Origin: Candidatus Omnitrophota bacterium
GTDB taxonomy: Bacteria > Omnitrophota > Gorgyraeia > 1-14-0-20-64-10
DNA: 64,000 bases
Reading direction: 5' to 3'
Assembly (NCBI GenBank): GCA_023248155.1
Contig: JAHFFE010000002.1
Span: 256,864 to 320,863, forward strand
The position numbers and the translations under genes are program-made. The notes beneath the pieces are model-generated. The model made no database searches. It saw nothing but the letters and a program-made list of their open reading frames with translations, and was not told where the DNA came from. Positions within the stretch are counted from its first letter, which is position 1, and every line of letters begins with the position of its first letter. Shown in pieces: positions 42,799-60,996 of this stretch.

Positions 42799-42857
42799 CT
42801 TGATATTTCACTAACCACCAGCCATACTTCCTATATAAGCCGTATTTTTCAACCTGG

Positions 42858-42884
42858 CCGGAACTGTTTTTCCGGTTTTGTTTT
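42858..42884 (+). terminator. Intrinsic terminator after coaX
   Basis: Hairpin ccggaa-ctgttt-ttccgg followed by ttttgtttt. Confidence 0.6.
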
Positions 42885-42921
42885 GGGGGATTTCTAGACT
42901 GTTTTTTAAAGGATAAACAGT

Positions 42922-45900
42922 ATGCTTGAACGCAAAAAATTAAGACACCTTAAAACAATCCTTTGCCTGACGCTGGCCATCGTTATGGCGTTGCCGCCGC
43001 CCTTTCTTTTTGCAGCTTCTTCCAATACAAATCATCTTCGTATGGCCCAGATTCAAGATAGTCGTTCCAACCCCATTCGTACCGGTCTGGAAGAATCTCT
43101 GCGCGGCGCGCTGGAGGAAAATACAGGCGAAAATAGAGCCGAACATCCGGACGTTTCCCTCAACCCGGTTTCTTTCTACATTGAAGCTTTCGGAGAAAGC
43201 ATTAGTGCTGCGAAGAGTTCTCTGGGCGCTCCTACGTCTGTTAGCTGGGCTGGCTTTTTGAGGAATGAACTGCCCTCTGTTGAATGGCAATTTGAACATC
43301 TAATAAGACCTATCCAAAATAACCTCCCCGCTTTTCTGCGTTTTTTGAAATCAAGCGATGCCGTCACTTCTGATTTGTTGGCGGAAGCTCGTTCGGAGAT
43401 CGCGAAGGAAGTGGGGCTGCCTTCCGATCAGATTTTCTTTATCCGGCCAAATGACTATTTGGTGTGGGGTTTGTTTTACGGCCTGAATGATTTCGAAGGA
43501 CCGTCCGGAGAACTGCGGCCCCATTTGGGTACTCGGGGCTTTCATGTGGCTGTTCCCGATGCGTCAGGGCAGCCAGTCAGGCTATTGTTTATTCGAAATG
43601 ATCTGAATGATTTCAATGGATTAGCAACGCTTGCTCACGAAGTGGCGCACTCTCGGCAGGATGTTAACGCTTTGGACTTGTATCATCGGAATGAGTTGGG
43701 GCGCAGTATCATCGAAGGCCTTCAGCAAGATCAGGAATATCAGATTTTATTATCTTTAGCTCAGAGGGAAACCGCTTTTGGACAGAGAGTTGCCCAAGTC
43801 ATTCAGGATGAATTTCGGGAAACCGCCTCTACTAGCGAACAGCGGATTCCCAAGGACCTTTCAATGCAATTGGGATCATTATTGTGGGACATTGATTATC
43901 AACAGGAGCACCTGTTTGTTAGAAGTCTGAGGGACCGGATGGTGGAAGCGGCGGGAGAAGCAGCGGCAGAAGCAGCGCTTCAAGAAGTTTACCAGAGAGG
44001 TAACTTGACCGCGGTTAGCTCAGCGCTTGTTGGATCTTCGCGCTACGAGCTGACGTCGTCTATTCTCGATCAGTTTCGGCAACTGCAGGCGCGTAATGAG
44101 CGGTTCTATCAACATGTTGGATTAAGCCTGGCCTCCCACTTTGGACTTGGTTCCAGGGAATACACGCCGCGTGAAACAGAATTGCTTCTGGAATTTTTTG
44201 AAACATTGGTTGATCTACTGTCGAAGAATATAGCTTTCCAAAAGGAAGAAAACGACCCCTTTTCGCTTTCAGAAGATGTTATTGATCTGGCAGAAGCGTA
44301 TCTGCAAGGGGGAATTTCCAGAGAAGAAGCTCCAGGGAACATCGCTAATCTTTTCGACAACTTTGAACCCGATACCTCTGAATCCGGTTTGGAAGAAGCA
44401 GAGGCGCGGGTTCAGAAGATTCTGCAGATTCTTCGGGAAGGGAATGCAAAAGAAGAGGGAGGGGTTCTGCTTAATCTCGACAGACTTCTTACGCCCGAGC
44501 CCCATCCGGCGTTGGTTCAGCAGGCAAAACTTGTAGTGACAGAGTTCGTCCAAAACTTATCCACAACCGACTTGGATATGAGGCGAGTTTCAGTAAGAGG
44601 GTTACAGCGTCTCATGCCACACGCTGCTTTTCGAGATGCGATGGTTGGAACCGGTCTGGTCCAAGCTGCGATAGAGCATCCGTCCTATCATCTGATGGGC
44701 TATCCTAGCTCAGATTTGACAGGAACCTTGTCTCCGTTAATTCCGGATGAGCGTTTTAGAAATGAGTTCTCTGAGGGAGTTCTTCGATTGCTTCTGCTGA
44801 TGGCCTCTTCCGAAAAATCATTGCTTCGTGATGATGCGAAAAAGCTTCTGTCCGCCATCAGTGCCGACCCAGGGTTTTACCCTGTTTTGGTTGTTCAGAT
44901 TCCAACATTAGTTGACTGGACCATTTACGGTGATCAAAACAACATCTTCTTGCGTAGCGACAGTTATGAGCTCCTTGAGGCCATGGCCAAAGCCGACCAT
45001 CGCCTTTACTGGCCCGAGCTTTTAGCTCAAGTGCCGTATATTCTTGCGGCTCTGCCTCGGAGTCCTGTCTATGCAAGCGATTTGCTTAGAGACATTCTTA
45101 AGCAAATGGATTTAGCTCAAAATCCGGATCTCCAAAATGTATTAATTCGGGGAACCCCCTTACTCATAAAGCTTGCCTACGGTTTTGCCCAATCATCAGT
45201 TGTAAGAGATATTCTTCTCGATTTATCCAGGGCGGATAATCCTTTGTTCGATACGGCTCTTGCTTTGGAAGTGACAGGGCGGTTGTCTAAACTGGGGGAT
45301 TCAAATTTGGAAATTCGGTCTGAAGCCAGCTTTAGTCTGAATCGGATGGTGGGAAAAGGAGATTTTTCTCCGGTGCTGGCGGCTCATATCCCGGAGCTTG
45401 TTTCTCAGCTTAGTTCCCCAGAATGGGATGCCCGTTATCATGCAGGCAAAATTCTCTCTGAAATGGCTCTTAATCCGGCAAGAGTCTTTCATTCAGCATT
45501 GGCGCTGCAGATTCCGAATTTGTTTGAGCCCCTGGGTCATCAAAGCGACGTAGTCGCCGCGGCGACAAACAGCGTAGTCGCCGCTTTTCTGCAGGGCGGG
45601 GTCGCTCCGGGTGTTCTGGCGCTGCATTATTTAGTTCATTTCCCGCAATTGGCGGAACGCGGCGAAGCGCTGCTGCGCGCCCTATATCTCAAGGGGTTTT
45701 ATGCGGCACCGGTCTATGAACAAGCTGCTCGTTCAGTGCTTCAAAGCAATGGTTCAAGCCGTTGGCATGTGGAAAGTAATCAAGGAGGTCTTGTGTTGGT
45801 AGAAAGTTATGGCCGGCCGTTGGACATTCCGGCGGACGAGCGTGTTCCCCTCACTGATCCCGATGGAGATTCTATCGCGGACGCGAAACTGGAAATAGCT

Positions 45901-47436
45901 GAGGAAAATGATGAGTCATCCTACGGCGGCATAGCCGACCAGTTTTACCGAGTGGCGACATTAACTCGCGATGGAGAGAGACAAGGGCTTCTGCTTTATC
46001 AACCGGCACTGACAGCGTGGGAGAGTGCCACTACTCAGCAGAGGCAGCAGAAAGGCGCTGTTTTTGTGGGTATGTCACCGTACGCAGGGCAGGTCTTCTT
46101 CCTGATGCCGTGGGGAGAACTGCTGCAAATATGGGTGAACACCCAGGAGCTTCTGAATGATCAAGACCGCCGCGTTCGAGAAGCGCAAGCTTATTTTAAA
46201 GAACATCAGGATCTTTCGAGGTTAATGACGAATCTGACTGGCAATGACGATGATAAATACTTTATCTTTCAAAGTCTGATCGTAGAAATGCCGTTGGAAG
46301 GGGCATTTCTGGATGAAGAAAGCGGTCTTCCCATGAGTGTGGTAGCGGAGTTGACGTCCAAGGGCGTTGACAGAGAAGAGATAAGGCCCTTTGTGAATCA
46401 TGCCTTGGCGATATGGCTGGAGGAAGTCCAACAGGAAGGCGACCTCCGGTCGCTCTATGAGATGCTCTTTCATCTGATTTACTTCAAGATTTTGCCCGGT
46501 GAAATATCCGGATATCGCGATGTGATTCAGGTTCGACAGGGAGAGTTCAATGGCATGCAGGCAGAACAGATGTTAAACGAAGCCATTGCGCCCGATCTTC
46601 CTCCGGCCATTAGTGCGGGGATCACGAAAGAGGTTGCAGAAGGTGGCAGCGTTGGGCTTCGGCGTGGGGGTGTCTTCGATGTCCACGCCAAAACCACCTG
46701 GCAACTTTTGGCTGATTTAGAGACACGCGGCCGTGTCCAGACTCCGACAGCGCCCTCCCTCTCGTTGGGAGAAGAAGGGTGGACTCTTAAACTGCTGGGA
46801 GAACTTCAAAAAGGAACAATAGGTATTTATCTCAACAGCGATGCCCAGCCCTTGTCGCCAGATCGGTTTGGCGATGAATTTCCGGATGGAATCAGCCATC
46901 TTGTGATTAAGCCTGTGCCTTCTTCCGGCATGGAGGAAGAAACTGTTACCGTTACGCAAAATGGGCCGGTCATTACCACCACGGCCACGGCGCTGCGCAT
47001 CGAATGGAACAATTTCCCCAGGGTCACTATTTCTTCGACGATAACCGAGCCTAAGCGCGTATTGATTGTAACGCCGGATGGTTTAACCAAACTTTCGTTG
47101 GCGGCGGTCTTTGCCGGCCCCGACGGGAAGAGCCCGTTGATCATCGAAGCGCTGGCAGTCGATGATGCGCAGAAAGGTCGCGTCGAATCGGCTTTGCGCG
47201 AATTGGGTTTGACCAATATCCGCGTCCATAGCGTTAAATCAGAGTTTGGCGGGAATACCGGCGAGGGGATCGCTACTCTTGAGATGTTGCACTGGCAGCA
47301 GAACCAGCAAACTCTTGTAGTCACCGCTCTCACCGAGCTGGCAGATATTGCGCAGTTCCTGGGTGTTCCCGGCGCGGAATTGGAACTCTTTGGTGTTGAA
47401 GCGGCTGCCCAGAATAGCCAGTCGGTTTGGTCGTAA
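42922..47436 (+). CDS. Giant (1504 aa) secreted hypothetical protein with HEXXH motif and HEAT-like repeats
   Basis: N-terminal signal peptide MLERKKLRHLKTILCLTLAIVMALPPPFLFAASS. LATLAHEVAHSRQD motif near residue 240. Repeated helical HEAT/PBS-lyase-like units (…SPEWDARYHAGKILSEMA…). RBS aagga upstream. GC is clearly below that of neighbouring genes. Confidence 0.7.
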   Translation: MLERKKLRHLKTILCLTLAIVMALPPPFLFAASSNTNHLRMAQIQDSRSNPIRTGLEESLRGALEENTGENRAEHPDVSLNPVSFYIEAFGESISAAKSSLGAPTSVSWAGFLRNELPSVEWQFEHLIRPIQNNLPAFLRFLKSSDAVTSDLLAEARSEIAKEVGLPSDQIFFIRPNDYLVWGLFYGLNDFEGPSGELRPHLGTRGFHVAVPDASGQPVRLLFIRNDLNDFNGLATLAHEVAHSRQDVNALDLYHRNELGRSIIEGLQQDQEYQILLSLAQRETAFGQRVAQVIQDEFRETASTSEQRIPKDLSMQLGSLLWDIDYQQEHLFVRSLRDRMVEAAGEAAAEAALQEVYQRGNLTAVSSALVGSSRYELTSSILDQFRQLQARNERFYQHVGLSLASHFGLGSREYTPRETELLLEFFETLVDLLSKNIAFQKEENDPFSLSEDVIDLAEAYLQGGISREEAPGNIANLFDNFEPDTSESGLEEAEARVQKILQILREGNAKEEGGVLLNLDRLLTPEPHPALVQQAKLVVTEFVQNLSTTDLDMRRVSVRGLQRLMPHAAFRDAMVGTGLVQAAIEHPSYHLMGYPSSDLTGTLSPLIPDERFRNEFSEGVLRLLLLMASSEKSLLRDDAKKLLSAISADPGFYPVLVVQIPTLVDWTIYGDQNNIFLRSDSYELLEAMAKADHRLYWPELLAQVPYILAALPRSPVYASDLLRDILKQMDLAQNPDLQNVLIRGTPLLIKLAYGFAQSSVVRDILLDLSRADNPLFDTALALEVTGRLSKLGDSNLEIRSEASFSLNRMVGKGDFSPVLAAHIPELVSQLSSPEWDARYHAGKILSEMALNPARVFHSALALQIPNLFEPLGHQSDVVAAATNSVVAAFLQGGVAPGVLALHYLVHFPQLAERGEALLRALYLKGFYAAPVYEQAARSVLQSNGSSRWHVESNQGGLVLVESYGRPLDIPADERVPLTDPDGDSIADAKLEIAEENDESSYGGIADQFYRVATLTRDGERQGLLLYQPALTAWESATTQQRQQKGAVFVGMSPYAGQVFFLMPWGELLQIWVNTQELLNDQDRRVREAQAYFKEHQDLSRLMTNLTGNDDDKYFIFQSLIVEMPLEGAFLDEESGLPMSVVAELTSKGVDREEIRPFVNHALAIWLEEVQQEGDLRSLYEMLFHLIYFKILPGEISGYRDVIQVRQGEFNGMQAEQMLNEAIAPDLPPAISAGITKEVAEGGSVGLRRGGVFDVHAKTTWQLLADLETRGRVQTPTAPSLSLGEEGWTLKLLGELQKGTIGIYLNSDAQPLSPDRFGDEFPDGISHLVIKPVPSSGMEEETVTVTQNGPVITTTATALRIEWNNFPRVTISSTITEPKRVLIVTPDGLTKLSLAAVFAGPDGKSPLIIEALAVDDAQKGRVESALRELGLTNIRVHSVKSEFGGNTGEGIATLEMLHWQQNQQTLVVTALTELADIAQFLGVPGAELELFGVEAAAQNSQSVWS

Positions 47437-47468
47437 AAAAGAAACGGTCAGGGATTATAATAACGTTC

Positions 47469-49643
47469 ATGCGTTGTTTTAAGAAATTCTCTCCGCTGTT
47501 ACTAACATTCCTTATCGTAACTTCCGGTTGTTCTAAGCCGAAGGAACCCCCGCAGTCATTTTTCTCCGAAATGGATCATCTGTCTGAAACGGGCAATTAC
47601 ACCCAGCTGGTCAAAGCGGCGCAGACGATGGCAAAAAAACATCCCGATTCCGGCCGTCTGCAGCGCATTATAGGAAACGCCGAATTCTCCCAAACTCATT
47701 TTTCCGAAGCGGCCGATGCGTTGCAATCGGCGGTTGATCGCGGGTATGGCGGCGCTGAAACGCGCCGGATGCTGGGTCTCTCTTATTTTTATACCGGCGA
47801 TTTCGACGAAGCGGCCGCGCAATTAGAAGCGGTCTTGCGTCAGCAATCGCTGGACACCGAGGCGATGCGGCATCTGGGCTATCTCTATTATTACCTTGGC
47901 CAGGGCGCGAAAGCGGTGGCGGTGTTCGAAAAGCTCCGAGATGAAAACCCGCAAGACCTCGAATCGCTGATCGCGCTTGATGGATTATTGGCGCTCACTA
48001 AAAAATGGCAGGCCGCGCAAATGATCTGGTATTCCGAGCCGTCGTCAGGCTTGCAATTTTGTTATCCGGGCGGCTGGCTGCGCGAAGACAAAGAAAAATT
48101 AATTTCATCGGGCAAAACAATTTCCCGCTTGTTTTACCAGCCGCTGGTTTCTTCGGGCGGCCGCTTTTCAGGCATCTCGATGATGCTGGTCTCGGTCGAT
48201 AATGCCCGCCATGTTCCCTCTGAAAATCTTTTGAAAGGCCCCTGGCGGATGAGTGGCCAAACAGCCGAAGGTGAAAATATTTACTCCAATCTCTCGGGCA
48301 ACGCGGATTCTCCAAAGACTCAGGCGGTTTCGCGCGAGCCGGAAGAAATCACCCGCTGGCTCAGCCGGCAGGGGACCCGCATGATATCCAGCAGTTATAA
48401 TCTGGCATTCAAAGAGAGAAAAATTTCTTCGTGGGTCGGCGTGCGCGGCCAGGCCCGATATTGTCTTGGAGAAGAATTGGGTGAAGACGAGTCCGGCCGC
48501 CTGATTTACGGAAACAGCGCCGGCATTTACGATCCCGGCGCCGATCACTTTTTTCTGCTGATGGTGTATGGGCCGTCCGACAGAAAAGAAGACACGGCCG
48601 CTCTGTTTCGCGCGGTTTTTCAGACGGCGTTGTTTGGCGGGGTGGCCGGCATTCCGCCGGCGCCGGGTGAATGGCTGCCTGAAAAAGAGTATATCGCCCG
48701 CACCCAGGGTTTCCTGCAGAACGACGCTTCCGCCCGCGCGCTCACCGAGGCCAAAGAGGGAATAAAAGCCTATCCCAATTCCGGCGAAATGTTTTTCTGG
48801 GCCGGCAAATCGCACGCCGCTCTCTGGGATATGGAAGAAGCCGCCAAGGCCTACGAGCAGGCGAAAGAAAAAGGGTTTTCTTCCGCCGAATTGGAATTCG
48901 CGCTGGGCCAGTCGCGGTTGATGCTGGGCCAGTATGCCGAAGCCGAGAAAGCGTTTCTTCGCGGGTTGCAAATCGATTCGGCCAATGTTGAGGTGTTGAT
49001 GGGGCTTGCCAAAACCAGCTTCTGGCAAAACCAGATGGACCGGTCGATTGAACTATTTGAAAAAATCCCGAAAGATTCCGCCCGATTTGAAGAAGCCGCT
49101 TATTATGCCGGCGCGGTTCGCGCGCTGCAGGGGATCCCGGGCCCGGTGCAGTGGTACTCGTCTCAAAACGGAAGTTCTTTTTGTTATCCCGCCAACTGGG
49201 AGGCGCATGAATCAACCGAGCCGGACGGAAAGAATCAAATCATTTTTTACGACCGTTCCTGGTACCAGGCAGGCAGTCTTCCGGAAAGTATCCTTTTATA
49301 CGAGTGGCAGGACAGCGCTTCTCATCGCACCCAGAAAATCCGCGTAAAATCTCCGCCCGAGCAGATCCTCAACGAATTTTTCACCGACTATTGGGAAAAA
49401 CTGCCCGATCCGCTCAAAACCATTAAGTCGGTCAGCCCCATATTAAGGAAGGGCAGCGACCGTTTCTTGTGGGCCGAAGGTTCCTATACCGAAAACTCAA
49501 TCCGTAAAACCGTCCGCTGGCTGGCCTGCTACAATCCCGAAAAAGACCGCCTCCATCTGCTTGAATTTCATTCCGCCGGAACTTCTCTCGGCAAATGGTC
49601 GCTTTTTGCCGATGTCTGCCTGAATACCGCCCATTTCGAATAA
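47469..49643 (+). CDS. TPR-repeat lipoprotein with internal two-module duplication
   Basis: The ATG at 47469 gives MRCFKKFSPLLLTFLIVTSGCSKP, a lipobox. Two TPR blocks are each followed by a similar W-Y-S-x6-F-C-Y-P-x2-W module. Confidence 0.7.
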   Translation: MRCFKKFSPLLLTFLIVTSGCSKPKEPPQSFFSEMDHLSETGNYTQLVKAAQTMAKKHPDSGRLQRIIGNAEFSQTHFSEAADALQSAVDRGYGGAETRRMLGLSYFYTGDFDEAAAQLEAVLRQQSLDTEAMRHLGYLYYYLGQGAKAVAVFEKLRDENPQDLESLIALDGLLALTKKWQAAQMIWYSEPSSGLQFCYPGGWLREDKEKLISSGKTISRLFYQPLVSSGGRFSGISMMLVSVDNARHVPSENLLKGPWRMSGQTAEGENIYSNLSGNADSPKTQAVSREPEEITRWLSRQGTRMISSSYNLAFKERKISSWVGVRGQARYCLGEELGEDESGRLIYGNSAGIYDPGADHFFLLMVYGPSDRKEDTAALFRAVFQTALFGGVAGIPPAPGEWLPEKEYIARTQGFLQNDASARALTEAKEGIKAYPNSGEMFFWAGKSHAALWDMEEAAKAYEQAKEKGFSSAELEFALGQSRLMLGQYAEAEKAFLRGLQIDSANVEVLMGLAKTSFWQNQMDRSIELFEKIPKDSARFEEAAYYAGAVRALQGIPGPVQWYSSQNGSSFCYPANWEAHESTEPDGKNQIIFYDRSWYQAGSLPESILLYEWQDSASHRTQKIRVKSPPEQILNEFFTDYWEKLPDPLKTIKSVSPILRKGSDRFLWAEGSYTENSIRKTVRWLACYNPEKDRLHLLEFHSAGTSLGKWSLFADVCLNTAHFE

Positions 49644-49646
49644 TAG

Positions 49647-49674
49647 TTGACAACCAGTTCCCGCGTGGTACTAT
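49647..49674 (+). promoter_or_regulatory. Sigma70-type promoter of the groES-groEL-groES operon
   Basis: TTGACA (49647-49652), a 16-nt spacer, then TACTAT (49669-49674). Located ~70 nt upstream of groES and immediately before the CIRCE-like element. Confidence 0.5.
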
Positions 49675-49684
49675 ATCCCTGCGA

Positions 49685-49711
49685 TTAGCACTCTGCACCA
49701 GAGACCGCTAA
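49685..49711 (+). promoter_or_regulatory. CIRCE-like (HrcA operator) inverted repeat
   Basis: TTAGCACTC-N9-GACCGCTAA, compared with the consensus TTAGCACTC-N9-GAGTGCTAA. The left half is perfect and the right half matches 7 of 9. Confidence 0.55.
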
Positions 49712-49743
49712 TAAGTACTGCATAAATCAACCGAGGAGATGTA

Positions 49744-50043
49744 ATGGCGATTCAACCGTTGAATGACCGTATTTTAATCAAGCTGGAAGATCAGGAAGAC
49801 AAATCATCCGGCGGCATTATTTTGCCGGACTCCGCCCAGGAGAAACCGCATATGGGCAAGGTGGTTTCGGTAGGCAAGGGCAAAGTTTTGGAAGACGGCA
49901 CCGTCCGTCCGCTGGAAGTTAAAACGGGCGATACCATTTTGTTCGGCCGCTACACCGGAACCGAAGTTGTCTTCGACGACAAGGAATATACGATCCTCCG
50001 CGAAGACGATGTTCTGGCTATTGTCAGAGAACACCGTAAGTAA
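49744..50043 (+). CDS. groES: Co-chaperonin GroES (copy 1)
   Basis: [35 protein letters not shown]…, a 99-aa Cpn10. RBS gaggag. Confidence 0.9.
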
Positions 50044-50066: not shown

Positions 50067-51713
<1,647 letters not shown>

Positions 51714-51716
51714 TCC

Positions 51717-52007
51717 ATGATGAATCTAAAGCCTCTCGGCGATAAAGTAATCGTGGAAGTGCTCGGCTCGGCCGAAAAGACCAAGAGCGGACTCTACCTG
51801 CCGGATACCGCGCAGGAAAAACCGCAGGAGGCCAAGGTATTAGCGGTCGGTTCAGGGCGCGTTCTGCCCAACGGCAAAGTGGTTCCGCCGGATCTCAAGG
51901 CGGGCGACATTGTTCTGTTCGGCAAGTACTCCGGCAACGAGGTCACACTCGACGGCAAGGAGTATTTGATCATCGGTCAGGACGATGTTTTGGCTGTTAT
52001 CAAGTGA
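51717..52007 (+). CDS. Second Cpn10/GroES paralog downstream of groEL
   Basis: MMNLKPLGDKVIVEVLGSAEKTKSGLYLPDTAQEKPQEAKVLAVGSGRVL… is a full-length Cpn10 fold sequence. Start is 4 nt after the groEL stop. Confidence 0.85.
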   Translation: MMNLKPLGDKVIVEVLGSAEKTKSGLYLPDTAQEKPQEAKVLAVGSGRVLPNGKVVPPDLKAGDIVLFGKYSGNEVTLDGKEYLIIGQDDVLAVIK

Positions 52008-52015
52008 AATAGATA

Positions 52016-52047
52016 GTCATCCCCGAATCGTTTTTGTCGGGGATCTA
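52016..52047 (+). repeat. Hairpin repeat R, copy 1 (gtcATCCCCGAatcgtttttgTCGGGGATct)
   Basis: An 8-bp stem ATCCCCGA/TCGGGGAT with a 10-nt loop. A near-identical copy lies at 58035-58067, matching at 29 of 32 positions. Confidence 0.7.
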
Positions 52048-52061
52048 AAATCGTAAACAGT

Positions 52062-52093
52062 CGGCCGGGGAAAACTCCCGGCCGTTTTGTTTT
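52062..52093 (+). terminator. Intrinsic terminator of the groESL operon
   Basis: Hairpin cggccggg-gaaaact-cccggccg followed by ttttgtttt. Confidence 0.75.
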
Positions 52094-52119
52094 GAGGGAG
52101 AGTTAAAACTAAAAATCTC

Positions 52120-53268
52120 ATGAGGACTGGAAGAAACGACCCGTGTCTATGTGGCAGCGGAAAAAAATACAAGAAATGTTGTCTTGAGCGAATCTCTGTG
52201 CCGACTGTTCCTATTGAGATTTTAATGGAGTTAAGGGATCGTGAGCAAAAGTTGCGAACATGGAAACAGCAATATGGAGATGTTCGCCCTCCGATAGCGT
52301 TTGATTTTAAAGGAAAAAAACTTGTTGTATCAGGCAGTCGGGTGCATTACGCAAATGTTGATCAGTGGAGATTTATACCAGATTTTTTGATGAATTATTT
52401 ACCTGTGACTCTGGGAAAAGAATGGGGAGATGCAGAATTAAAGAAACCATTCCAAGAACAGCACCCGATTGTCCAATGGCGGACCAAAACCCTGGAATAT
52501 ATGGGAAAACAAAAAAAAGAAGAAAACGGTTCTTACTCTGCTGTTGCCAGTGGATTTATGGCTGCATTCTTATCGCTCGCTTGGGATATTTATGTAGTCC
52601 AAGACAATGGTCGATTAGATAGTTCTTTATTAGAGCGATTAAAACACAAGGAGCAATTTCAAGGTGCTCGTCACGAGTTGTTTGCTGAAGCTACCTGTCT
52701 TCGTGCAGGCTATTCTATTGTTCATGAAAACGAGAAAGATGGTAGAACAAGGCACGCTGAATTCAGCGCAACACATAAAGAAACCGGTCAAAAAATCTCT
52801 GTTGAAGCAAAAAGCAGGCATCGTCCAGGAGTGCTTGGATATCCAGGTGTGCCAAAAGCGGAAGACAAAATGAGTTTAAGATTTGGTCAGCTTCTTAACG
52901 ATGCTATTAATAAACAGCCGCCTTACCCGCTCGTTGTTTTTATAGACACTAATCTTCCCGCCAGTATTGCCGACAGAGTGTATGCCCCGGCCTCCATCAA
53001 TCCGTTTAGTCCGTCACGAGTCATAAATCAATTATTAGAGCAAACAAACAAAAATCATGGGGGCACAGATCCCTGCAACCTCGTAGTATTTACAAATCAT
53101 CCGCATCATTACAGCAAGGATGAGGAGTTAGATCCGAAAAGTCACAATTTGTCGATCATGGCTCAAATTCCTCAGAAAAAACCAACACATCCGCTCAGTA
53201 TATTGAAAATTCATGAGGCCGCTTGTCTTTATGGGTGTGTTCCAAATGAATTTCCACAGATAAAATAA
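52120..53268 (+). CDS. SEC-C metal-binding-motif protein, possible PD-(D/E)xK-like core (AT-rich islet)
   Basis: N-terminus MRTGRNDPCLCGSGKKYKKCC is a SEC-C zinc-binding motif. The central region …HAEFSATHKETGQKISVEAKS… fits the hhE-x15-ExK pattern of restriction-endonuclease-like folds (speculative). GC is ~43%. Confidence 0.65.
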   Translation: MRTGRNDPCLCGSGKKYKKCCLERISVPTVPIEILMELRDREQKLRTWKQQYGDVRPPIAFDFKGKKLVVSGSRVHYANVDQWRFIPDFLMNYLPVTLGKEWGDAELKKPFQEQHPIVQWRTKTLEYMGKQKKEENGSYSAVASGFMAAFLSLAWDIYVVQDNGRLDSSLLERLKHKEQFQGARHELFAEATCLRAGYSIVHENEKDGRTRHAEFSATHKETGQKISVEAKSRHRPGVLGYPGVPKAEDKMSLRFGQLLNDAINKQPPYPLVVFIDTNLPASIADRVYAPASINPFSPSRVINQLLEQTNKNHGGTDPCNLVVFTNHPHHYSKDEELDPKSHNLSIMAQIPQKKPTHPLSILKIHEAACLYGCVPNEFPQIK

Positions 53269-53285
53269 CGCAAAAAGTTTGGCGA

Positions 53286-53348
53286 ATAGCGGTACCGGGT
53301 ACCGCGGGGACAGGTTAAAATAGATCCGGCACTTTTGGAAACGGTACC
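53286..53348. repeat. Intergenic repeat pair: Y-type repeat (ATAgCGGTACCGGGTACCGCGGGGACA) plus inverted X-type repeat
   Basis: 53286-53312 matches the Y repeats at 54121-54147 and 54156-54182. The reverse complement of 53326-53348 is GGTACCgTTTCCAAAAGTGCCGG, which matches the X repeats. Confidence 0.7.
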
Positions 53349-53395
53349 TAACAGTAACTAGGTGACGTGGGAATCAAACTATTGAGAGGGTTAAG

Positions 53396-54073
53396 GTGAA
53401 GTTTTTGAGAGGTTTCTTGTTAATAGTCCTTCTAGTGGCTTCGCAGGGGTGTGCTTTGGGAGTACTGGCTAATGGGCCAAAGGGTTTGAACGCGATCAAG
53501 CATATGACGGAGATAGTCTCTGACCCTCCAGGAGCTCGAATTGAGATTAATAATCGATATATTGGCAATACGCCACTTACAGTAGAAATTCCTCGCGGAT
53601 ACACTTGGATGAAAGATGATTATTTCAGTCCAAAGCGCATAACAGGTTTCGAAGCAGTGAAGATCACGGCTTATCCGGAGCCTCCGACGGAAGGAGTTTA
53701 CTATGTTCAAACAAAGATTCTCGATTCAAATGAACCGACTCCTTACAATCTCTCCTTTACCATGTGGCTAGAACCTGCTTTTGTTCGTCAAGAAAGAGAG
53801 CATAGAGTACAAGAGGAAGATCGTCAGAGAAAAACCTATGAGGCTTTAAATAGCTGGATAGGCCACACAAAGACAGAACTTCTAGAGCAATGGGGTCCTC
53901 CTACCCAAGTTATTACGAACAAGGAGCAAGATGTCCTTGCATATGATAATTCGGTTCAAATGACTGTGCCTGTGGGATCGGCTGGCCAGCGGTTAATTGT
54001 GAAATCAGGGAAGTATGTAATGTTTTGGATAGATGCCAAGGAAAAAATTTATAAAGTCACATGGAAGGATTAA
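53396..54073 (+). CDS. PEGA-domain lipoprotein
   Basis: GTG start with RBS aagg. Lipobox LLVASQGC. …SDPPGARIEINNRYIGNTPLTVEIPRG… matches the PEGA domain pattern. AT-rich. Confidence 0.65.
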   Translation: MKFLRGFLLIVLLVASQGCALGVLANGPKGLNAIKHMTEIVSDPPGARIEINNRYIGNTPLTVEIPRGYTWMKDDYFSPKRITGFEAVKITAYPEPPTEGVYYVQTKILDSNEPTPYNLSFTMWLEPAFVRQEREHRVQEEDRQRKTYEALNSWIGHTKTELLEQWGPPTQVITNKEQDVLAYDNSVQMTVPVGSAGQRLIVKSGKYVMFWIDAKEKIYKVTWKD

Positions 54074-54081
54074 TCATGAAG

Positions 54082-54218
54082 AGTACCATTTCCAAAAGTG
54101 CCGGGTCTGAGCTTGTGTGGATAACGGTACCGGATACCGTGGGGACAGCGTGAGCATAACGGTACCGGGTACCGCGGGGACACCCGTAGGGTACCATTTC
54201 CAAAAGTGCCGGGTCTGA
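54082..54218 (+). repeat. Nested direct-repeat block X-Y-Y-X filling the intergenic region
   Basis: X1 spans 54082-54110 and X2 spans 54190-54218 (aGTACCATTTCCAAAAGTGCCGGGTCTGA, 28 of 29 identical). Y2 spans 54121-54147 and Y3 spans 54156-54182 (ATAACGGTACCGGrTACCGyGGGGACA). Spacers are 7-10 nt. Confidence 0.8.
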
Positions 54219-54239
54219 TTGATTAGCAGGGGTGGTGTT

Positions 54240-54566
54240 ATGATGCTTAAGACCAAAATTTTTAGCGCGGGTTTTTTGGGCGGGTTAATTCTGGCCCTTT
54301 TTCTGAATCTTCTGCCTTATTGGAAAACAAAAGGGGCTTTGGCGTGGGATGGTGCTGAGTATGCCGGATTTCCATTCCATTTCTATGAGCGATGGGCAGG
54401 TGAGATGCTGCCAGGGGCAACGACCAATTTAACAGCCCATTTTCTTATGGTGAATTTATTGGGTGACATAGGTGTTGGAGTCGCATTCGCGATAATTTTA
54501 GGTGTTTTGTGTGTCATGGCGCGTAATCGTGCCGGGTTCAATAAAGCATTGGGCGGGGACAGGTAG
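54240..54566 (+). CDS. Hypothetical small membrane protein (3 TM)
   Basis: The ATG at 54240 gives MMLKTKIFSAGFLGGLILALFLNLL…. The track ORF starts at TTG 54219, inside repeat X2. Confidence 0.5.
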   Translation: MMLKTKIFSAGFLGGLILALFLNLLPYWKTKGALAWDGAEYAGFPFHFYERWAGEMLPGATTNLTAHFLMVNLLGDIGVGVAFAIILGVLCVMARNRAGFNKALGGDR

Positions 54567-54584
54567 TAAAGTCCCCGTTTTTTT
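54554..54584 (+). terminator. Intrinsic terminator
   Basis: cggggac-aggtagtaaa-gtccccg followed by ttttttt. The stop codon lies in the loop. Confidence 0.75.
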
Positions 54585-54625
54585 CTGGCCACGATATTGC
54601 TGAATCAGCATAAATATTATTTGGG

Positions 54626-55075
54626 GTGATGCTCGACTCCGATCTGGCAGAGTTGTATGGTGTTCCCACGAAAGTTCTAAACCAAGCGGTAAAGAGAAAC
54701 GAGGAGCGATTTCCCGAAGGTTTTATGTTCCAATTGAATCAAGCAGAGTATAAATCTCTAAGGTCACAATTTGTGACCTTAGAGAAAGGGCGTGGAAAAT
54801 ATCCAAAATACCTCCCCCTGGTATTTACCGAACAGGGAGTCGCGATGCTCTCCAGTGTATTGCGCAGCAAGCGAGCAATTCAGGTGAACATTGCCATCAT
54901 GAAAACCTTCGTGAAGCTCCGGGAATTGTTATCAACCCACAGGGATCTTGCTGAAAAGCTGGCCACGCTGGAAAGCAAGTACGACTCGCAATTTAAGGTG
55001 GTTTTTGAAGCAATCCGCCAGTTAATGCTTCCTCCCGAAACGCCCCGCCGCAAAATAGGATTCCATTCGGATTAA
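54626..55075 (+). CDS. ORF6N/KilA-N-type DNA-binding domain protein (phage antirepressor-like)
   Basis: [37 protein letters not shown]…[31 protein letters not shown]… matches the ORF6N domain consensus. Shorter than typical at the N-terminus; a stop lies 15 nt upstream in frame. Confidence 0.8.
54756..54784 (+). other. 29-bp perfect palindrome inside the ORF6N coding sequence (ctctaaGGTCACAAtTTGTGACCttagag)
   Basis: 14-bp perfectly complementary arms around a single central T. The 17-bp core GGTCACAATTTGTGACC is identical to the terminator hairpin at 55080-55112. Encodes [10 protein letters not shown]. Confidence 0.8.
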
Positions 55076-55079
55076 ATTG

Positions 55080-55114
55080 AAACTTGAGGTCACAATTTGT
55101 GACCTCAAGTTTTT
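55080..55114 (+). terminator. Intrinsic terminator of the ORF6N gene (second copy of the GGTCACAATTTGTGACC palindrome)
   Basis: gaaacttgaGGTCACAAtTTGTGACCtcaagttt, a 14-16-bp stem followed by ttttt, 5 nt after the stop codon. Confidence 0.75.
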
Positions 55115-55119
55115 AGCAA

Positions 55120-55162
55120 GGTACCATTTGCGGTGATGCCGGGTTAAAATAAACCCAATCAG
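55120..55162 (+). repeat. Upstream motif C (GGTACCATTTgCGGtGaTGCCGGGTTAaAATAaaCCCAatCAg) abutting the next start codon
   Basis: Shares GGTACCATTTcC…GTGCCGGGT with the X repeats and shares …TGCCGGGTTA-AATA--CCCA-CA with motif D at 55986-56029. Ends 1 nt before the ATG at 55163. Confidence 0.7.
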
Positions 55163-55978
55163 ATGACCCGATTCGTTCACCGATCTCTCGCCGCTGGGCT
55201 GTTGGTGCTGAGCCTTTTCACGGGTTCGGCAAGCGCGCGAGATTTTCTGTTTACAGAAGCAGAATCGGATTGCTTTGCCCAGATGATTTTCATGAATGAA
55301 TGTTCGGGCAGAGAAGAAAAGTTGCTTTACTGGTCGCCCGATGAGGCGTTTCCATCGCTTGGGATCGGGCATTTTATCTGGTACCCCGAAAATGCCTCGG
55401 GCTCTTACCTGGAAACATTCCCGGCATTTCTTGGTTTTGCTAAAGAGATCCATCTGATGATCCCGCCCTGGATTGTCGCACTGCCAAACAAACACTGCCC
55501 CTGGCAGTCGCGCGAGGAGTTTCTGCGAGATCTTCCCAGCGACCGCGTACGCGAGTTGCGGGCTTTCCTGAGCAACACGAAAAGCGAGCAGGCGCAGTTT
55601 ATCGGCCGCCGTTTTATGCGGGTTTTTCCTCGGATTCTTGACGATCTCAACGAGTCGGATCGTGAAGCTACTCAACAGAAATACGATCTTTTGATGCGGC
55701 GTCGCGAGGCGACTTTTGCCATGATCGACTATGTCAATTTTAAAGGGGAAGGACTGCGCGCGGATGCCCGTTATGACGGGATGGGGTGGGGTCTTGCCCA
55801 TGTTCTTATTGAGATGAATATTCCGGACGATCCCGAGAAAGCCCTCGATGAATTTATCCTGGCGGCGGAACGGGTGCTTGAAAGGCGAGTGAGCCGCTCT
55901 CCGAGGCCGGAAATCGAAGCGAAATGGCTGCCCGGCTGGAAAAATCGCGTTAGAAGCTACTCGAGAATCAAGTGTTGA
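55163..55978 (+). CDS. Hypothetical secreted protein
   Basis: Signal peptide MTRFVHRSLAAGLLVLSLFTGSASA. No recognisable domain. High GC (~65%), unlike the preceding AT-rich genes. Confidence 0.6.
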   Translation: MTRFVHRSLAAGLLVLSLFTGSASARDFLFTEAESDCFAQMIFMNECSGREEKLLYWSPDEAFPSLGIGHFIWYPENASGSYLETFPAFLGFAKEIHLMIPPWIVALPNKHCPWQSREEFLRDLPSDRVRELRAFLSNTKSEQAQFIGRRFMRVFPRILDDLNESDREATQQKYDLLMRRREATFAMIDYVNFKGEGLRADARYDGMGWGLAHVLIEMNIPDDPEKALDEFILAAERVLERRVSRSPRPEIEAKWLPGWKNRVRSYSRIKC

Positions 55979-55985
55979 TCAGCAG

Positions 55986-56029
55986 GGTACCATTTCCGGC
56001 GGTGCCGGGTTAGAATAGGCCCAGCAAGG
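55986..56029 (+). repeat. Upstream motif D (GGTACCATTTCCGGCGGTGCCGGGTTAGAATAGGCCCAGCAAGG)
   Basis: Paralogous to motif C. Ends 3 nt before the GTG at 56033 and 12 nt before the ATG at 56042. Confidence 0.7.
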
Positions 56030-56041
56030 GGGGTGTCTTCG

Positions 56042-56410
56042 ATGCATGAAAAGAAACACCAAAAAGTAGCGCCCGTTTCAATTTTTGTAAAGAGAATGAC
56101 GATCTATGTAGGCGTCGTTCTTTCGCTGATGGTCTGCGCTTTGTTTATTGGCGTTGCCGGATACCATTGGTTGGCGGGCCTGAGCTGGGTTGATTCTCTT
56201 TTAAATGCCTCGATGATCCTGGGCGGAATGGGGCCTGTTAATGTTCTGCCTAATGCCGCTTCGAAGGTGTTCGCCTCAGCGTTCGCTCTTTTTAGCGGAA
56301 TATTTTTTATCGCGATGATGGGGATCCTTTTTGTGCCGATTATGCACCGGGTGCTTCACAAATTTCATGCCGAGGAGAAAGATTTTCAGCAAAAATCAAA
56401 AAGAGAATAA
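56042..56410 (+). CDS. Hypothetical membrane protein (3 TM)
   Basis: MHEKKHQKVAPVSIFVKRMTIYVGVVLSLMVCALFIGVAGY…. An alternative GTG start lies at 56033. Confidence 0.5.
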   Translation: MHEKKHQKVAPVSIFVKRMTIYVGVVLSLMVCALFIGVAGYHWLAGLSWVDSLLNASMILGGMGPVNVLPNAASKVFASAFALFSGIFFIAMMGILFVPIMHRVLHKFHAEEKDFQQKSKRE

Positions 56411-56420
56411 AGGAGCATTC

Positions 56421-56714
56421 GTGGCGCAAATAACCGTAGTCGCAAAGGCAAAAGCCAAACCGGGATCTGAAAAAGAGCTGCAGCGGGCGCTGGAAGCGGT
56501 GGTCGCGCCGACCCGTCAGGAAAAGGGCTGTTTATCGTATGTTCTGCATCAGGGCGCAGAAGACCCCGCCTTGTTTGTATTCATTGAACAATGGGAATCC
56601 CGCGAGGCGCTTAAAGAGCATTTCAACAAGCCGTATGTTCAAGCCTTGTTTATGAATCTGCCCGCGTTAATTGCCGGCGCTCCGGAAATCCTGACGCTTT
56701 CTGAGGTATCTTGA
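56421..56714 (+). CDS. Antibiotic-biosynthesis-monooxygenase (ABM) domain protein
   Basis: GTG at 56421 preceded by aggag. MAQITVVAKAKAKPGSEKELQRALEAVVAPTRQEKGCLSYVLHQ…FVFIEQWESREALKEHF… is a ferredoxin-like ABM fold signature, ~97 aa. The track ORF starts at 56331, inside the upstream gene. Confidence 0.7.
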   Translation: MAQITVVAKAKAKPGSEKELQRALEAVVAPTRQEKGCLSYVLHQGAEDPALFVFIEQWESREALKEHFNKPYVQALFMNLPALIAGAPEILTLSEVS

Positions 56715-56854
56715 CCGAAAAAATCGGTTTGTGGTACATTACCTTATGGCGTACTTGGTACCATCCTCAGCACTAAAAACTCTCGCAATACCGGAAAATT
56801 CCGCGCCATCTTTTTCTGTCCAACCATCTTATTATTCAAGGGAGATTCTGTCTC

Positions 56855-58015
56855 ATGGGTGAATATATTGGAGTCGGCCGCAAGGCGCGCCGCTGTTACG
56901 GGTTTGATGAAATCGCCCTGGTTCCGGGCAACGTAACGATCAATCCGAACGAGGTTGATGTTTCCTGGAAATTGGGCAAGCAGCAGTACCGCGTGCCGAT
57001 TATTGCCAGCGCGATGGATGGCGTGGTCGATGTGAAGGTGGCCATCGCGTTCGGCAAGCATGGCGGTTTGGGTGTGTTGAACCTGGAAGGGGTGCAGACC
57101 CGCTACGAAGAGCCGGAAGAATTGTTGTCGAAGGTGCGCGCCGCTACTCCCGAAGAAGCAACCGAACTTTTGCAGAAAATTTACCGCGAACCGGTGAAAG
57201 AGAAACTGGTTTCCAAGCGGATTGAAGAAATTAAAGCGGCCGGCGTTTCAGCCGCGGTCTCAGCGATTCCGCAGCGGGCCGCGCGGTTCGGGCCGCTCGC
57301 GCAGGAAGCCGGCGTTGATGTATTCGTCGTGCAGTCGACGGTCTCCACGGTAAAACATATTTCCACAGAATATGAATCACTCGATATCAAGAAATTGTGC
57401 AAGACGATGAAGGCGCCGGTCATCGCCGGCAACTGTGTGACTTATCAGGTGGCGCTGGAATTAATGCAGTGCGGCGTCTCCGGCGTGCTGGTGGGCATCG
57501 GGCCGGGTGCGGCCTGCACCACGCGCGGCGTGCTGGGCATTGGCGTTCCGCAGGTTTCGGCCACGGTTGACTGCGCGGCTGCCCGCGACGCGTACTACAA
57601 GAAAACCAAACGGTATGTGGCGATCATTACCGACGGCGGCATGCGCACCGGCGGCGATGTCTGCAAGGCGTTTGCCTGCGGTTCCGACGCGGTCATGATC
57701 GGGTCGCCGTTCGCGCGCGCGAAAGAAGCGCCGGGCGGCGGATATCACTGGGGCATGGCGACACCGCACGCGAACCTGCCGCGCGGCACGCGCATTCAGG
57801 TGGGTGTCACCGGTACGCTCGATGAAATTTTATACGGACCGGCCCGCACCGACGACGGCACCCAGAATTTGATGGGCGCTCTGTCGACGGCGATGGGTTC
57901 GGTCGGCGCCAAAACCATCAAGGAATTCCAGAAGACGGAAATCATCATCGCGCCGTCCATTCAGACTGAAGGGAAACTGGCCCAGCGGACGCAGCGCGTC
58001 GGCATGGGGAAGTGA
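56855..58015 (+). CDS. IMP dehydrogenase-related protein (GuaB-like TIM barrel without CBS pair)
   Basis: 386 aa. MGEYIGVGRKARRCYGFDEIALVPGNVTINPNEVDVSWKLG…IIASAMDGVV…GIGPGAACTTRGVLGIGVPQ… is IMPDH-family, comparable to the 'GuaB3' type. Confidence 0.75.
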   Translation: MGEYIGVGRKARRCYGFDEIALVPGNVTINPNEVDVSWKLGKQQYRVPIIASAMDGVVDVKVAIAFGKHGGLGVLNLEGVQTRYEEPEELLSKVRAATPEEATELLQKIYREPVKEKLVSKRIEEIKAAGVSAAVSAIPQRAARFGPLAQEAGVDVFVVQSTVSTVKHISTEYESLDIKKLCKTMKAPVIAGNCVTYQVALELMQCGVSGVLVGIGPGAACTTRGVLGIGVPQVSATVDCAAARDAYYKKTKRYVAIITDGGMRTGGDVCKAFACGSDAVMIGSPFARAKEAPGGGYHWGMATPHANLPRGTRIQVGVTGTLDEILYGPARTDDGTQNLMGALSTAMGSVGAKTIKEFQKTEIIIAPSIQTEGKLAQRTQRVGMGK

Positions 58016-60725: not shown

Positions 60726-60741
60726 AATGGAGGGATTAACA

Positions 60742-60996
60742 ATGATGGGTGCACACGGTCTCGCTATGTCATTATTGCCCGCGGCAGTTGGTTACTGGGT
60801 ACTGATCGCTTCAGGAAAAGAAAAAGATGATGTTAAGAAGCTGGGCAAATGGCTGGGTATCGCGATCATCGCGCTGAGCGTTCTGGGAACCGCTTGTAAA
60901 GTTTATTATTGCGCGATGGGAAAAATGGGTATGTGCCAGTCGAAGATGGCTTGTCCGATGGCGGGTAAGCCGGCTCCGATGGCTCCGCAAGGTTAA
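60742..60996 (+). CDS. Hypothetical small membrane protein with Met/Cys-rich C-terminus
   Basis: The ATG at 60742 is preceded by ggaggg and gives MMGAHGLAMSLLPAAVGYWVLIAS…KVYYCAMGKMGMCQSKMACPMAGKPAPMAPQG. Confidence 0.5.
   Translation: MMGAHGLAMSLLPAAVGYWVLIASGKEKDDVKKLGKWLGIAIIALSVLGTACKVYYCAMGKMGMCQSKMACPMAGKPAPMAPQG

Follow-up and report, generated by a model that had tools for sequence, protein, structure and literature searches.

What are the GGTACC-containing repeats that punctuate a short row of genes in this genome, and do they serve the genes beside which they lie? The window, by which we mean the whole 64-kb stretch of DNA analysed, contains 16 GGTACC sites compared with 4.23 +/- 2.07 expected, a count that none of 100 shuffles reached. 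Eleven of these sites fall within 53291-56762, in line with the crowding of about 10 in 3.5 kb described in the original prediction, and one, at 55380, is internal to the 271-aa gene, outside any repeat. The surrounding region is a low-GC mosaic islet bordered by groES2 on one side and an IMPDH-like gene on the other. Its genes, as assigned by Pfam scan, encode in order a SEC-C protein, a PEGA lipoprotein, a membrane protein, an ORF6N protein, a 271-aa secreted protein, a second membrane protein and an ABM protein. These genes have no functional relation to one another, and their GC3 varies from gene to gene (0.34-0.58 each vs 0.68-0.73 in the flanking genes). Two motif families, X (with the variants C and D) and Y, were re-located at the positions proposed earlier, and the features of the islet are as follows.

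52008-56714, no strand assigned: low-GC mosaic islet of seven plus-strand genes, with repeats at the gene junctions
53286-53318, plus strand: Y1, a Y-type REP/TIR arm, ATAGCGGTACCGGGTACCGCGGGGACAGGTTAA (Y match at 53286-53312)
53322-53348, minus strand: inverted X arm, minus-strand sequence GGTACCGTTTCCAAAAGTGCCGGATCT (nhmmer E = 8e-8)
54082-54110, plus strand: X1, an X-type REP arm, AGTACCATTTCCAAAAGTGCCGGGTCTGA (nhmmer E = 3.7e-8)
54121-54147, plus strand: Y2, a slightly diverged Y-type arm, GGTACCGGATACCGTGGGGACAG
54156-54182, plus strand: Y3, a Y-type arm
54190-54218, plus strand: X2, an X-type arm ending in GGGTCTGA (nhmmer E = 9e-9)
54528-54560, plus strand: tentative partial composite remnant made of two 3' arm halves, X (GTGCCGGGTTCAATA) followed by Y (GCGGGGACAGGTA)
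55120-55162, plus strand: C, an X-type arm that has diverged (mismatched at 3 of 23 specified positions)
55986-56029, plus strand: D, an X-type arm, subtype 'GGCG' (nhmmer E = 8.6e-8)

Y1 and the inverted X arm together make up a hybrid doublet, with Y1 on the left; this is the sole '+-' doublet of the window, and it has no stable fold (folding z about 0). A GCCGGATCTA variant of the inverted X arm is also present in three copies at locus L053 of another genome. X1, whose first base is A (hence AGTACC), opens the X-Y-Y-X array at 54082-54218, the units of which are direct copies, as had been noted before. The array closes with X2, 22 nt ahead of the ATG of the 108-aa membrane-protein gene. C is followed by TAAAAT and a short GGGTT/AACCC hairpin, with the ATG of the 271-aa gene adjoining, and D is followed by TAGAAT. 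The copy at 54528-54560 was absent from the earlier list; it closes the 108-aa membrane-protein ORF at the 3' side, encoding the last ~13 residues, and its GGGGAC provides the stem of a terminator-like hairpin. Its X half has an nhmmer E-value of 0.16, and its assignment as a composite X/Y remnant, made from context, is tentative. A further partial copy proposed near ~56756 dissolved on inspection, since at 56757 there is just GGTACCAT, which is not significant.

An independent nhmmer model, trained solely on copies from other genomes, recovered X1, X2, the inverted X arm and D at E < 1e-7 and yielded no further significant match in the rest of the window, which in total holds five X and three Y copies in 64 kb. 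None of the window copies folds as a single strand (z about 0) or has a foldable partner arm, and no gene for a REP-associated tyrosine transposase (RAYT) was detectable in the window by tblastn with a RAYT query. Apart from the 54528-54560 fragment, which forms a C-terminal tail, the copies are intergenic, and no conserved gene is interrupted. They occur, in decayed form, singly or in clusters where one islet gene meets the next.

The same sequences are numerous elsewhere. A scan of 185,579 species genomes, one genome per species, for the X pattern (arm consensus GGTACCRTTTCC-N4-GTGCCGGGTYN) returned 75 loci, 61 of them with conserved flanks in about 22 Omnitrophota-type MAGs, which are labelled Omnitrophota or, in a few cases, Elusimicrobia, Planctomycetia or 'uncultured'. 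The remaining 14 are isolated matches in unrelated taxa, with about 17 chance matches estimated. The 61 loci contain 139 arms, and exact matches occur on at least 16 contigs of the MAG JACQQZ alone. There, two arms of 27-29 nt, inverted relative to each other and separated by a loop of 1-53 nt, make up the usual unit, laid out as GGTACCRTTTCC-N4-GTGCCGGGTTC, loop, GAACCYGGCAC-N4-GGAAAYGGTACC. Such '+-' inverted doublets are the commonest single form (37 of 80 elements, with no '-+' arrangement among the 80), and they fold into a REPIN-like hairpin of ~30 bp; the six that were folded gave -35 to -43 kcal/mol, with z = -11 to -14. Essentially all copies carry GGTACC (GTAC) at the outer end, a tag akin to, but distinct from, the canonical GT[AG]G of REPs. 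The sequence CCGG-N5-CCGG is present in the GGGA, GGCG and GGAA arm subtypes; it is missing from AAAA arms, the window's X among them, which taken singly are not self-palindromic. The arm sequence is kept over about 22 species of 44-65% GC and contains no stop codon in any of the six frames.

In the relatives, doublets are found downstream of genes, in intergenic spacers (in any orientation) and, in frame, within long housekeeping ORFs. A sizeable fraction of copies is intragenic, including in-frame elements in AroA, RimO, ABC-transporter genes and very long ORFs, where each adds ~9-27 residues in loops or linkers. The elements also differ in presence between genomes at an orthologous site. 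The window and locus L043 share the synteny of guaA with a small membrane-protein gene (GuaA 67% identical), and the guaA spacer holds an X doublet in L043 vs 18 nt and no element in the window.

The X arms are tied to a transposase. Inverted X arms bracket a gene of ~195 codons at loci L053, L038 and L071, and at L022 an X arm lies on one side only of such a RAYT gene. Pfam assigns the products of these X-flanked genes to Y1_Tnp (E = 1e-11 to 1e-13), and their scores with NCBIfam NF047646, 'REP-associated tyrosine transposase', run from 67 to 85 bits, straddling the curated cut-off of 80 bits (two, at 85.4 and 80.5, lie above it). A profile of 15 RAYTs had E. coli TnpA_REP (PDB 4ER8) as its best match (E = 2.7e-6), above ISDra2 TnpA, and the HUH histidines H60 and H62 and the tyrosine Y120, part of a YIERNP motif, are invariant. 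The reciprocal test, from protein to flanks in metagenomic RAYT homologues, found flanking arms in all 12 homologues of at least 60% identity (11 X-type, and an X/Y hybrid in L088) and X arms in none of 68 homologues of at most 47% identity. The 5' arm always precedes the RAYT ATG by 12-90 nt, and the 3' arm overlaps the stop codon. X is thus the terminal repeat of one RAYT clade, and the association holds in both directions. The GGGTCTGA ending of X2 is typical of arms 5' of RAYT genes (cf. L083 and L084), and D hardly differs from the arm that precedes the RAYT gene at L078 (GGTACCATTTCCGGCGGTGCCGGGTCTAATAGG).

The Y motif, GGTACCGGGT[AT]C[CG]NNGGGGACAGGT, was found at L003, L014, L015, L020, L054, L083 and L093. 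Inverted Y arms flank the RAYT gene of L109 (43% identity), the L088 RAYT gene (60% identity) bears the hybrid arm GGTACCATTTCCTACAGGGACAGGTCT, and more distant RAYTs have terminal repeats containing GGGGACAC. At L093, an X-type RAYT gene is cut by a Y element. Judged from two loci, L109 (complete) and L093 (partial), Y appears to be the terminal repeat of a second RAYT clade. The terminal repeats form a graded series, from Y through the L088 hybrid to X, that tracks RAYT divergence.

RAYTs are HUH/Y1 nucleases of the IS200-like superfamily, and REP-type repeats are their short terminal repeats. We conclude, with a probability of roughly 0.87, that the X motif (C and D included) and the Y motif belong to two related REP-type families of RAYTs, to which sequence similarity firmly assigns the window copies. 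The suggestion made earlier as an alternative, that the motifs are remnants of a small non-autonomous mobile element, is therefore supported, X and Y being RAYT terminal repeats. By analogy with E. coli TnpA_REP and IS200/IS605, the RAYT would recognise the folded arm in single-stranded DNA, cut beside the conserved outer tetranucleotide (GTAC within GGTACC here, GTAG in E. coli) and thereby copy or move doublets in trans; both the cleavage chemistry and the cleavage site are carried over from those systems. Because a model built from other genomes matches the GGTACC motifs of the window, the motifs do not fold and tblastn detects no RAYT gene, they are read as worn-down REP copies. They are most likely immobile relics, probably inert, and seem to have accumulated in, or come with, low-GC DNA gained by horizontal transfer and inserted between groES and the IMPDH-like gene. 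An active RAYT, together with many intact doublets, may lie outside the window in the same genome. The relic set comprises one hybrid Y/X doublet, one direct X-Y-Y-X cluster, the diverged solo arms C and D, and one fragment. That some copies lie just 5' of start codons follows from the short intergenic spacers of a co-directional gene row. This pre-start position also mirrors that of the 5' arm ahead of the RAYT ATG.

This identification removes a false lead for annotation, as neither a regulon nor an ORF6N operator appears to be involved, and it supplies two repeat consensus sequences, each with the RAYT clade it belongs to, for use in annotating Omnitrophota MAGs. Such repeats can break up assemblies and lengthen or shift ORF predictions, and they have added 9-27 residues to real enzymes. 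To our knowledge, REP-RAYT work so far has dealt almost only with Proteobacteria; the system described here belongs to an uncultured PVC-related phylum. This host phylum, the arm that spans a wide GC range, the graded repeats and the frequent in-frame insertions make it a useful comparative case for the co-evolution of element, transposase and host.

A more elaborate scenario is that the arms mark junctions of separately acquired genes, joined by a RAYT or by recombined repeats in a form of RAYT/REP cassette assembly, with coding-compatible, strand-biased REPINs of two competing lineages in housekeeping genes across the Omnitrophota. The junction-marking role is drawn from the fact that each islet gene has its own GC3 and, ahead of it, a same-strand arm of the RAYT-5' type. 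The strand bias refers to the antisense G.T-forming strand of all eight intragenic heterodimers, and the competition to the X-type RAYT gene cut by a Y element at L093. We regard this scenario as unlikely.

The original prediction favoured shared operators, promoters or 5'-UTR motifs that co-regulate the islet genes, for example through the ORF6N protein. X2, C and D do end 0-22 nt ahead of start codons in intergenic DNA, C and D are followed by the TAAAAT and TAGAAT noted above, and the 12-90-nt spacing of RAYT 5' arms would allow an arm to carry or abut a promoter; in addition, L054 has the order Y, ORF6N fragment, X found in the window. However, the position upstream of start codons, presented as fixed, does not hold in the relatives, where the same sequences are symmetric hairpin doublets sited after genes, 3' of stop codons, or in frame inside genes such as AroA and RimO, and the elements are therefore not bound to gene starts. 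Even in the window, the doublet at 53286-53348 and X1 lie downstream of genes. ORF6N accompanies the motif at only one of the 61 loci, there as a gene fragment cut by an arm, and its proposed role as regulator finds no support. A scan for sigma-70-like sites (-35/-10 hexamers at 16-18 nt spacing, a scope outside which Omnitrophota-specific promoter types fall) found 4 in 53200-56900 vs 4.4 expected by shuffle, none of them at a motif, and the genes to be co-regulated are unrelated in function and unequal in GC3. A shared regulon is thus very improbable, although single arms may have incidental promoter activity, which is conceivable given the 5' arm placement at the RAYT ATG and the TAAAAT and TAGAAT after C and D.

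Equally doubtful is a role as structured RNA, that is, a riboswitch, sRNA or terminator family acting post-transcription. The doublets would give very stable RNA hairpins, stabilisation or termination of transcripts by REPs is documented in other bacteria (PMC3733652), and in 24 of 43 doublets a CCGGG arm is paired with a CCAGG arm, so that a G.U pair forms on one strand only. Against this reading, the G.T-forming strand is antisense to the gene in all eight intragenic heterodimers, and the variable 4-nt core is mismatched between the arms in 19 of the 43 doublets and hence shows no compensatory pattern. The elements also occur in either orientation and in all reading frames, and the window copies are unfolded and lack a partner arm. 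Rfam gave no relevant match in 53000-57000 even at E <= 10; over the whole window, only the tRNA at 26013-26086 exceeded the gathering threshold (Rfam 15).

The arms could instead be terminal inverted repeats of a deleted DDE insertion sequence (MITEs), spread by cut-and-paste with target-site duplication. Inverted repeats of 27-29 bp around a short internal segment, dispersed and polymorphic between genomes, would fit such elements, but the only gene found between inverted arms is the HUH/Y1 transposase (four loci from the repeat side, 12 from the protein side), and no DDE transposase was seen beside any arm. The doublet flanks show, by eye, no target-site duplication but a tandem stutter of the outer GTACC with a few flanking bases, and we consider this origin highly improbable.

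Still less credible are attC-type sites between promoterless cassettes of an integron without integrase. In favour, the islet genes are small, unrelated, of foreign composition and all in one direction, with 60-140 bp of repeat overall at each junction, and the repeats elsewhere form imperfect hairpins with a variable centre. Against it, the outer ends read GGTACC and not RYYYAAC...GTTRRRY, the window sites form no single-strand fold (z about 0), Pfam revealed no integrase among the ten ORFs scanned around the islet, the same repeats occur singly inside housekeeping genes, and the associated enzyme is a RAYT and not an IntI tyrosine recombinase.

The REP-type families described here are closest to E. 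coli REP/BIME with TnpA_REP and to Pseudomonas REPIN-RAYT (Nunvar 2010, PMC2817692; Bertels & Rainey 2011, PMC3116915; Messing 2012, PMC3479197). They share with these systems short high-copy repeats, mostly as inverted hairpin doublets, a conserved outer tetranucleotide and an HUH/Tyr transposase gene between the same inverted repeats; clusters mixing two repeat types recall BIMEs, and 4ER8 of E. coli is the best structural-sequence match. They differ in the GTAC tag in place of GT[AG]G, in the many single arms without the self-complementarity of textbook REPs, in their hosts (uncultured Omnitrophota vs Proteobacteria), and in the many intragenic copies and the arm conserved over about 22 species of 44-65% GC. 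TIRtron/TIRYT systems combine tyrosine transposases with non-REP terminal inverted repeats sharing GGGGWSAS (Di Nocera 2013, PMC3733652). Compared by repeats alone and through that one short consensus from PMC3733652, Y arms resemble them in carrying GGGGACAG or GGGGACAC, which fit GGGGWSAS, and in their fixed distance from RAYT gene ends, whereas in X arms this motif has been lost and they read GTGCCGGG instead. As in TIRYTs, the Omnitrophota repeats occur as singles, dimers and clusters, and AAAA-subtype single arms are closer to 'TIR' repeats, in the nomenclature of PMC3733652, than to textbook REPs.

With IS200/IS605 elements (IS608, ISDra2), the system shares the Y1 HUH fold and motifs and subterminal hairpins that are presumably recognised in single-stranded DNA. 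However, the Omnitrophota proteins score 67-85 bits on the RAYT model vs 19-23 bits on the IS200 model, there is no tnpB, and the arms are symmetric inverted repeats rather than distinct left and right ends. In-frame palindromic repeats in working housekeeping genes are also a feature of the Rickettsia RPEs and of the intragenic GTAG REPs of Opitutus terrae. We know of no transposase for RPEs, whereas the Omnitrophota family has a cognate RAYT.

The window contains 16 copies of the palindrome GGTACC where 4.2 are expected, a count that none of 100 shuffles reaches, and 11 of the 16 sites lie within 53291-56762, in keeping with the local excess described in the original prediction. Repeat finding also recovered its two GGTACC-containing families, X and Y, and the X variants C and D, at the following positions:

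53286, start of a Y copy
53322-53348, X, inverted copy
54082-54110, X
54121, start of a Y copy
54156, start of a Y copy
54190-54218, X
55120, start of C
55986, start of D

X, C and D have GGTACCRTTT-N7-TGCCGGRT in common, and an additional partial copy occupies 54528-54560, within the 3' end of a 108-aa membrane-protein ORF. The partial copy previously placed near 56757 amounts to only eight bases and is not significant.

A scan for GGTACCRTTTNCNNNNNTGCCGGRT in one genome per species (185,579 species) returned 75 loci in all. Fourteen are isolated, occur in unrelated taxa and show no similarity outside the pattern, for which about 17 matches were expected by chance on our own estimate. The other 61 lie in about 22 MAGs of 44-65% GC that carry the label Candidatus Omnitrophota (in a few cases Elusimicrobia, Planctomycetia or 'uncultured'). 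The window itself is an Omnitrophota-type genome, and its motifs belong to the same family. In these MAGs the usual conserved unit is an inverted pair, or doublet, consisting of GGTACCRTTTCC[AAAA/GGGA/GGCG/GGAA...]GTGCCGGGTTC, a loop of 1-53 nt and the reverse complement. A relaxed scan yielded 139 arms (an arm being one repeat copy of 27-29 nt) in 80 elements, comprising 37 '+-' doublets, 35 solo arms and 8 clusters, with no '-+' pair among the 80, and six doublets that were folded formed hairpins of about 30 bp (z = -11 to -14). Insertion polymorphism is visible behind guaA. The GuaA proteins of the window and of MAG JACQQZ are 67% identical and a small membrane-protein gene follows guaA in both, whereas the spacer holds an intact X doublet in JACQQZ (L043, 1343-1430) and only 18 nt, with no element, in the window (60726-60743); these are a filled and an empty orthologous site.

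In 24 of 43 doublets (L008, L011, L031, L039, L058, L059, L065, L076 and others), a CCGGG arm is combined with a CCAGG arm, so one strand of the hairpin contains a G.T pair and the opposite strand an A.C mismatch. According to crude gene calls, all 8 doublets of this kind within ORFs of at least 200 aa have their G.T-forming strand antisense to the gene, and the intergenic ones lean the same way (9 versus 5); if real, this bias suggests strand-specific insertion. In L003 (~480-560), about 15 nt separate a solo X arm from the 3' end of a tRNA gene encoded on the other strand.

At three loci of other genomes (L053, L038, L071), inverted X arms bracket a gene of about 195 aa, and at a fourth (L022) an arm is present on one side only. 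The encoded proteins are mutually homologous (MPRKPRELVDGGIYH.FNRGN...YHYCLMPNHFHLLL...CGRYIERNP), match Pfam Y1_Tnp, and score 67-85 bits against the NCBIfam model 'REP-associated tyrosine transposase' (RAYT; cut-off 80) but only 19-23 bits against the IS200 model. A direct PDB search with a single RAYT sequence gave no match; only the profile search succeeded, a 15-sequence profile matching E. coli TnpA_REP best (4ER8, E = 2.7e-6), with ISDra2 TnpA behind. The association between repeat and enzyme holds in both directions. In the reverse test, from protein to repeat, at 80 metagenomic loci encoding relatives, flanking arms accompanied all 12 homologues of at least 60% identity (11 X-type, one X/Y hybrid at L088), while an X arm accompanied none of the 68 homologues of at most 47% identity, so the association with X arms is a property of a single RAYT clade. 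Between the 5' arm and the ATG there are 12-90 nt, and the 3' arm starts within the stop codon (TGA-ACCCGGCAC...).

Y could be taken for a mere stutter of GGTACCG, but this is ruled out because GGTACCGGGT[AT]CC is conserved in the Y copies of seven other loci; the longer pattern GGTACCGGGT[AT]C[CG]NNGGGGACAGGT was found again in L003, L014, L015, L020, L054, L083 and L093. Inverted Y arms flank the RAYT of L109, which is 43% identical to the X-clade enzyme, the hybrid arm of L088 (60% identity) reads GGTACCATTTCCTACAGGGACAGGTCT, and the terminal repeats of more distant RAYTs contain GGGGACAC, fitting the GGGGWSAS motif reported in repeats that flank tyrosine transposases (PMC3733652). X and Y thus serve as terminal repeats for two RAYT lineages, related to each other and present side by side in these genomes. 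One lineage has disrupted the other in L093 (3001-3330), where a Y arm, accompanied by the 5' leader characteristic of a Y-clade RAYT, has inserted into an X-clade RAYT gene (84% identity) and truncated it at codon 95.

The original prediction favoured operators, promoters or 5'-UTR elements of one regulon, placed just upstream of start codons. Among the 139 arms, crude ORF calls put 65 in intergenic regions, 60 within ORFs and 14 across ORF ends; the family, as seen in these relatives, is therefore not tied to gene starts, an outcome that the original prediction itself had named as refuting its reading. Counted conservatively, 11 of the 80 elements are embedded in ORFs of at least 300 aa, 40 codons or more from the ORF ends. 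All six frames of the arm are free of stop codons, and the reading frame runs on through intragenic elements in various frames; in alignments to solved structures, the element accounts for about 16 additional residues in an AroA loop (CAYJTC010000086) and for two inserts between domains of RimO (MHFR01000037). Intragenic REPs have previously been described for Opitutus terrae and Rickettsia (PMC3733652). The promoter idea finds no sigma-70-like match at any window motif, and an ECF-sigma-type promoter (GGTACC as -35, GTT/GTC as -10), conceived from spacing alone, was dropped when the motif proved to be a symmetric doublet also found inside genes. Single-stranded folds of the repeat-bearing window spacers are no better than shuffles (z -0.6 to +0.3; about 0 over all sites), which argues against attC sites or other single-strand hairpins, classical REP hairpins and structured leaders in the window; the only exceptions are a palindrome associated with the ORF6N gene, unrelated to the repeats, and a terminator-like stem. 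A riboswitch or other structured RNA is likewise rejected, as Rfam is empty in the region both at gathering and at E <= 10, and hairpins derived by hand for C and D are missing from X. A dif/Xer-like 28-bp site fails on its non-palindromic halves, a phage origin on the lack of any match to the X pattern in IMG/VR viral contigs, and CRISPR, already discounted in the original prediction, on direct clusters with gaps of 7-22 nt and no spacers.

By analogy with E. coli TnpA_REP and IS200/IS605 (PMC3479197, PMC6006769), the RAYT would bind the folded arm in single-stranded DNA, and its HUH/Tyr site would cut alongside the tetranucleotide at the outer end, GTAC in this family. At their outer ends, arms frequently bear GTACC plus 4-8 flanking bases in 2-4 tandem copies, as in L083 (2880-2960, AACAACCGGTAC four times), 5' of the RAYT gene in L080 and L081, 3' of it in L087, and in L023, L011 and L049; such tandem copies may reflect either slippage or recurrent rounds of nicking and rejoining where cleavage is presumed to occur. 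The Omnitrophota X/Y system shares most defining features of REP/REPIN-RAYT systems. However, its arms lack the canonical REP tag GT[AG]G and many of them, taken singly, are not palindromes as REPs are; the system is therefore a variant that stands close to the 'TIRYT' class. A literature search found no work linking Omnitrophota with REPs or RAYTs.

The window holds decayed copies only. Its two X copies and the inverted X belong to the AAAA subtype typical of low-GC Omnitrophota (e.g. MHFR) and end in GGGTCTGA or GGATCTA, a feature shared with arms 5' of RAYT genes; D is an almost exact match to the arm that precedes the L078 RAYT, and C is a diverged arm. Every window arm lacks a foldable partner, and tblastn found no RAYT in the 64-kb window (best E = 0.11). 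The pair of Y and inverted X and the X-Y-Y-X array are mixed clusters of both repeat types, comparable to BIMEs. The surrounding islet, whose genes are all on the + strand, has a low and uneven GC content (GC3 per gene 0.34-0.58 versus 0.68-0.73 in neighbours) and is flanked by groEL-groES2 on one side and an ABM / IMPDH-like / rlmN / guaA block on the other. We interpret the window copies as relics, no longer mobile, that lie at the junctions of a mosaic islet gained by horizontal transfer.

At 54545-54580, Y-derived GGGGAC pairs with GTCCCC, followed by T7, in a terminator-like hairpin (z = -2.2) positioned right at the stop codon of the gene for the 108-aa membrane protein, which appears to owe its C-terminal codons as well as its terminator to a REP remnant. 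A second stretch of lowered GC (42001-50000, 0.49-0.53), free of X and Y copies, encodes a 738-aa TPR protein and includes an ORF of 1504 aa that matches HEAT repeats only faintly. The gene order groES-groEL-groES (49744-50043, 50073-51713, 51717-52007) puts a second Cpn10 gene, which shares 46% identity with the first, immediately after groEL, and the low-GC islet starts right behind it. In addition, a perfect palindrome of 31-33 nt occurs twice, inside the ORF6N gene (54755-54785, TCTCTAAGGTCACAATTTGTGACCTTAGAGA, encoding 10 residues) and just past its stop codon (55080-55112, AAACTTGAGGTCACAATTTGTGACCTCAAGTTT); the latter copy has compensatory stem changes and a fold z of -6. The same palindrome is present in an ORF6N gene fragment of L054 (~3925-3955), which an X arm truncates a few bases further on; this palindrome may be a conserved operator or hairpin of ORF6N genes, or else a place where the arm preferentially lands.
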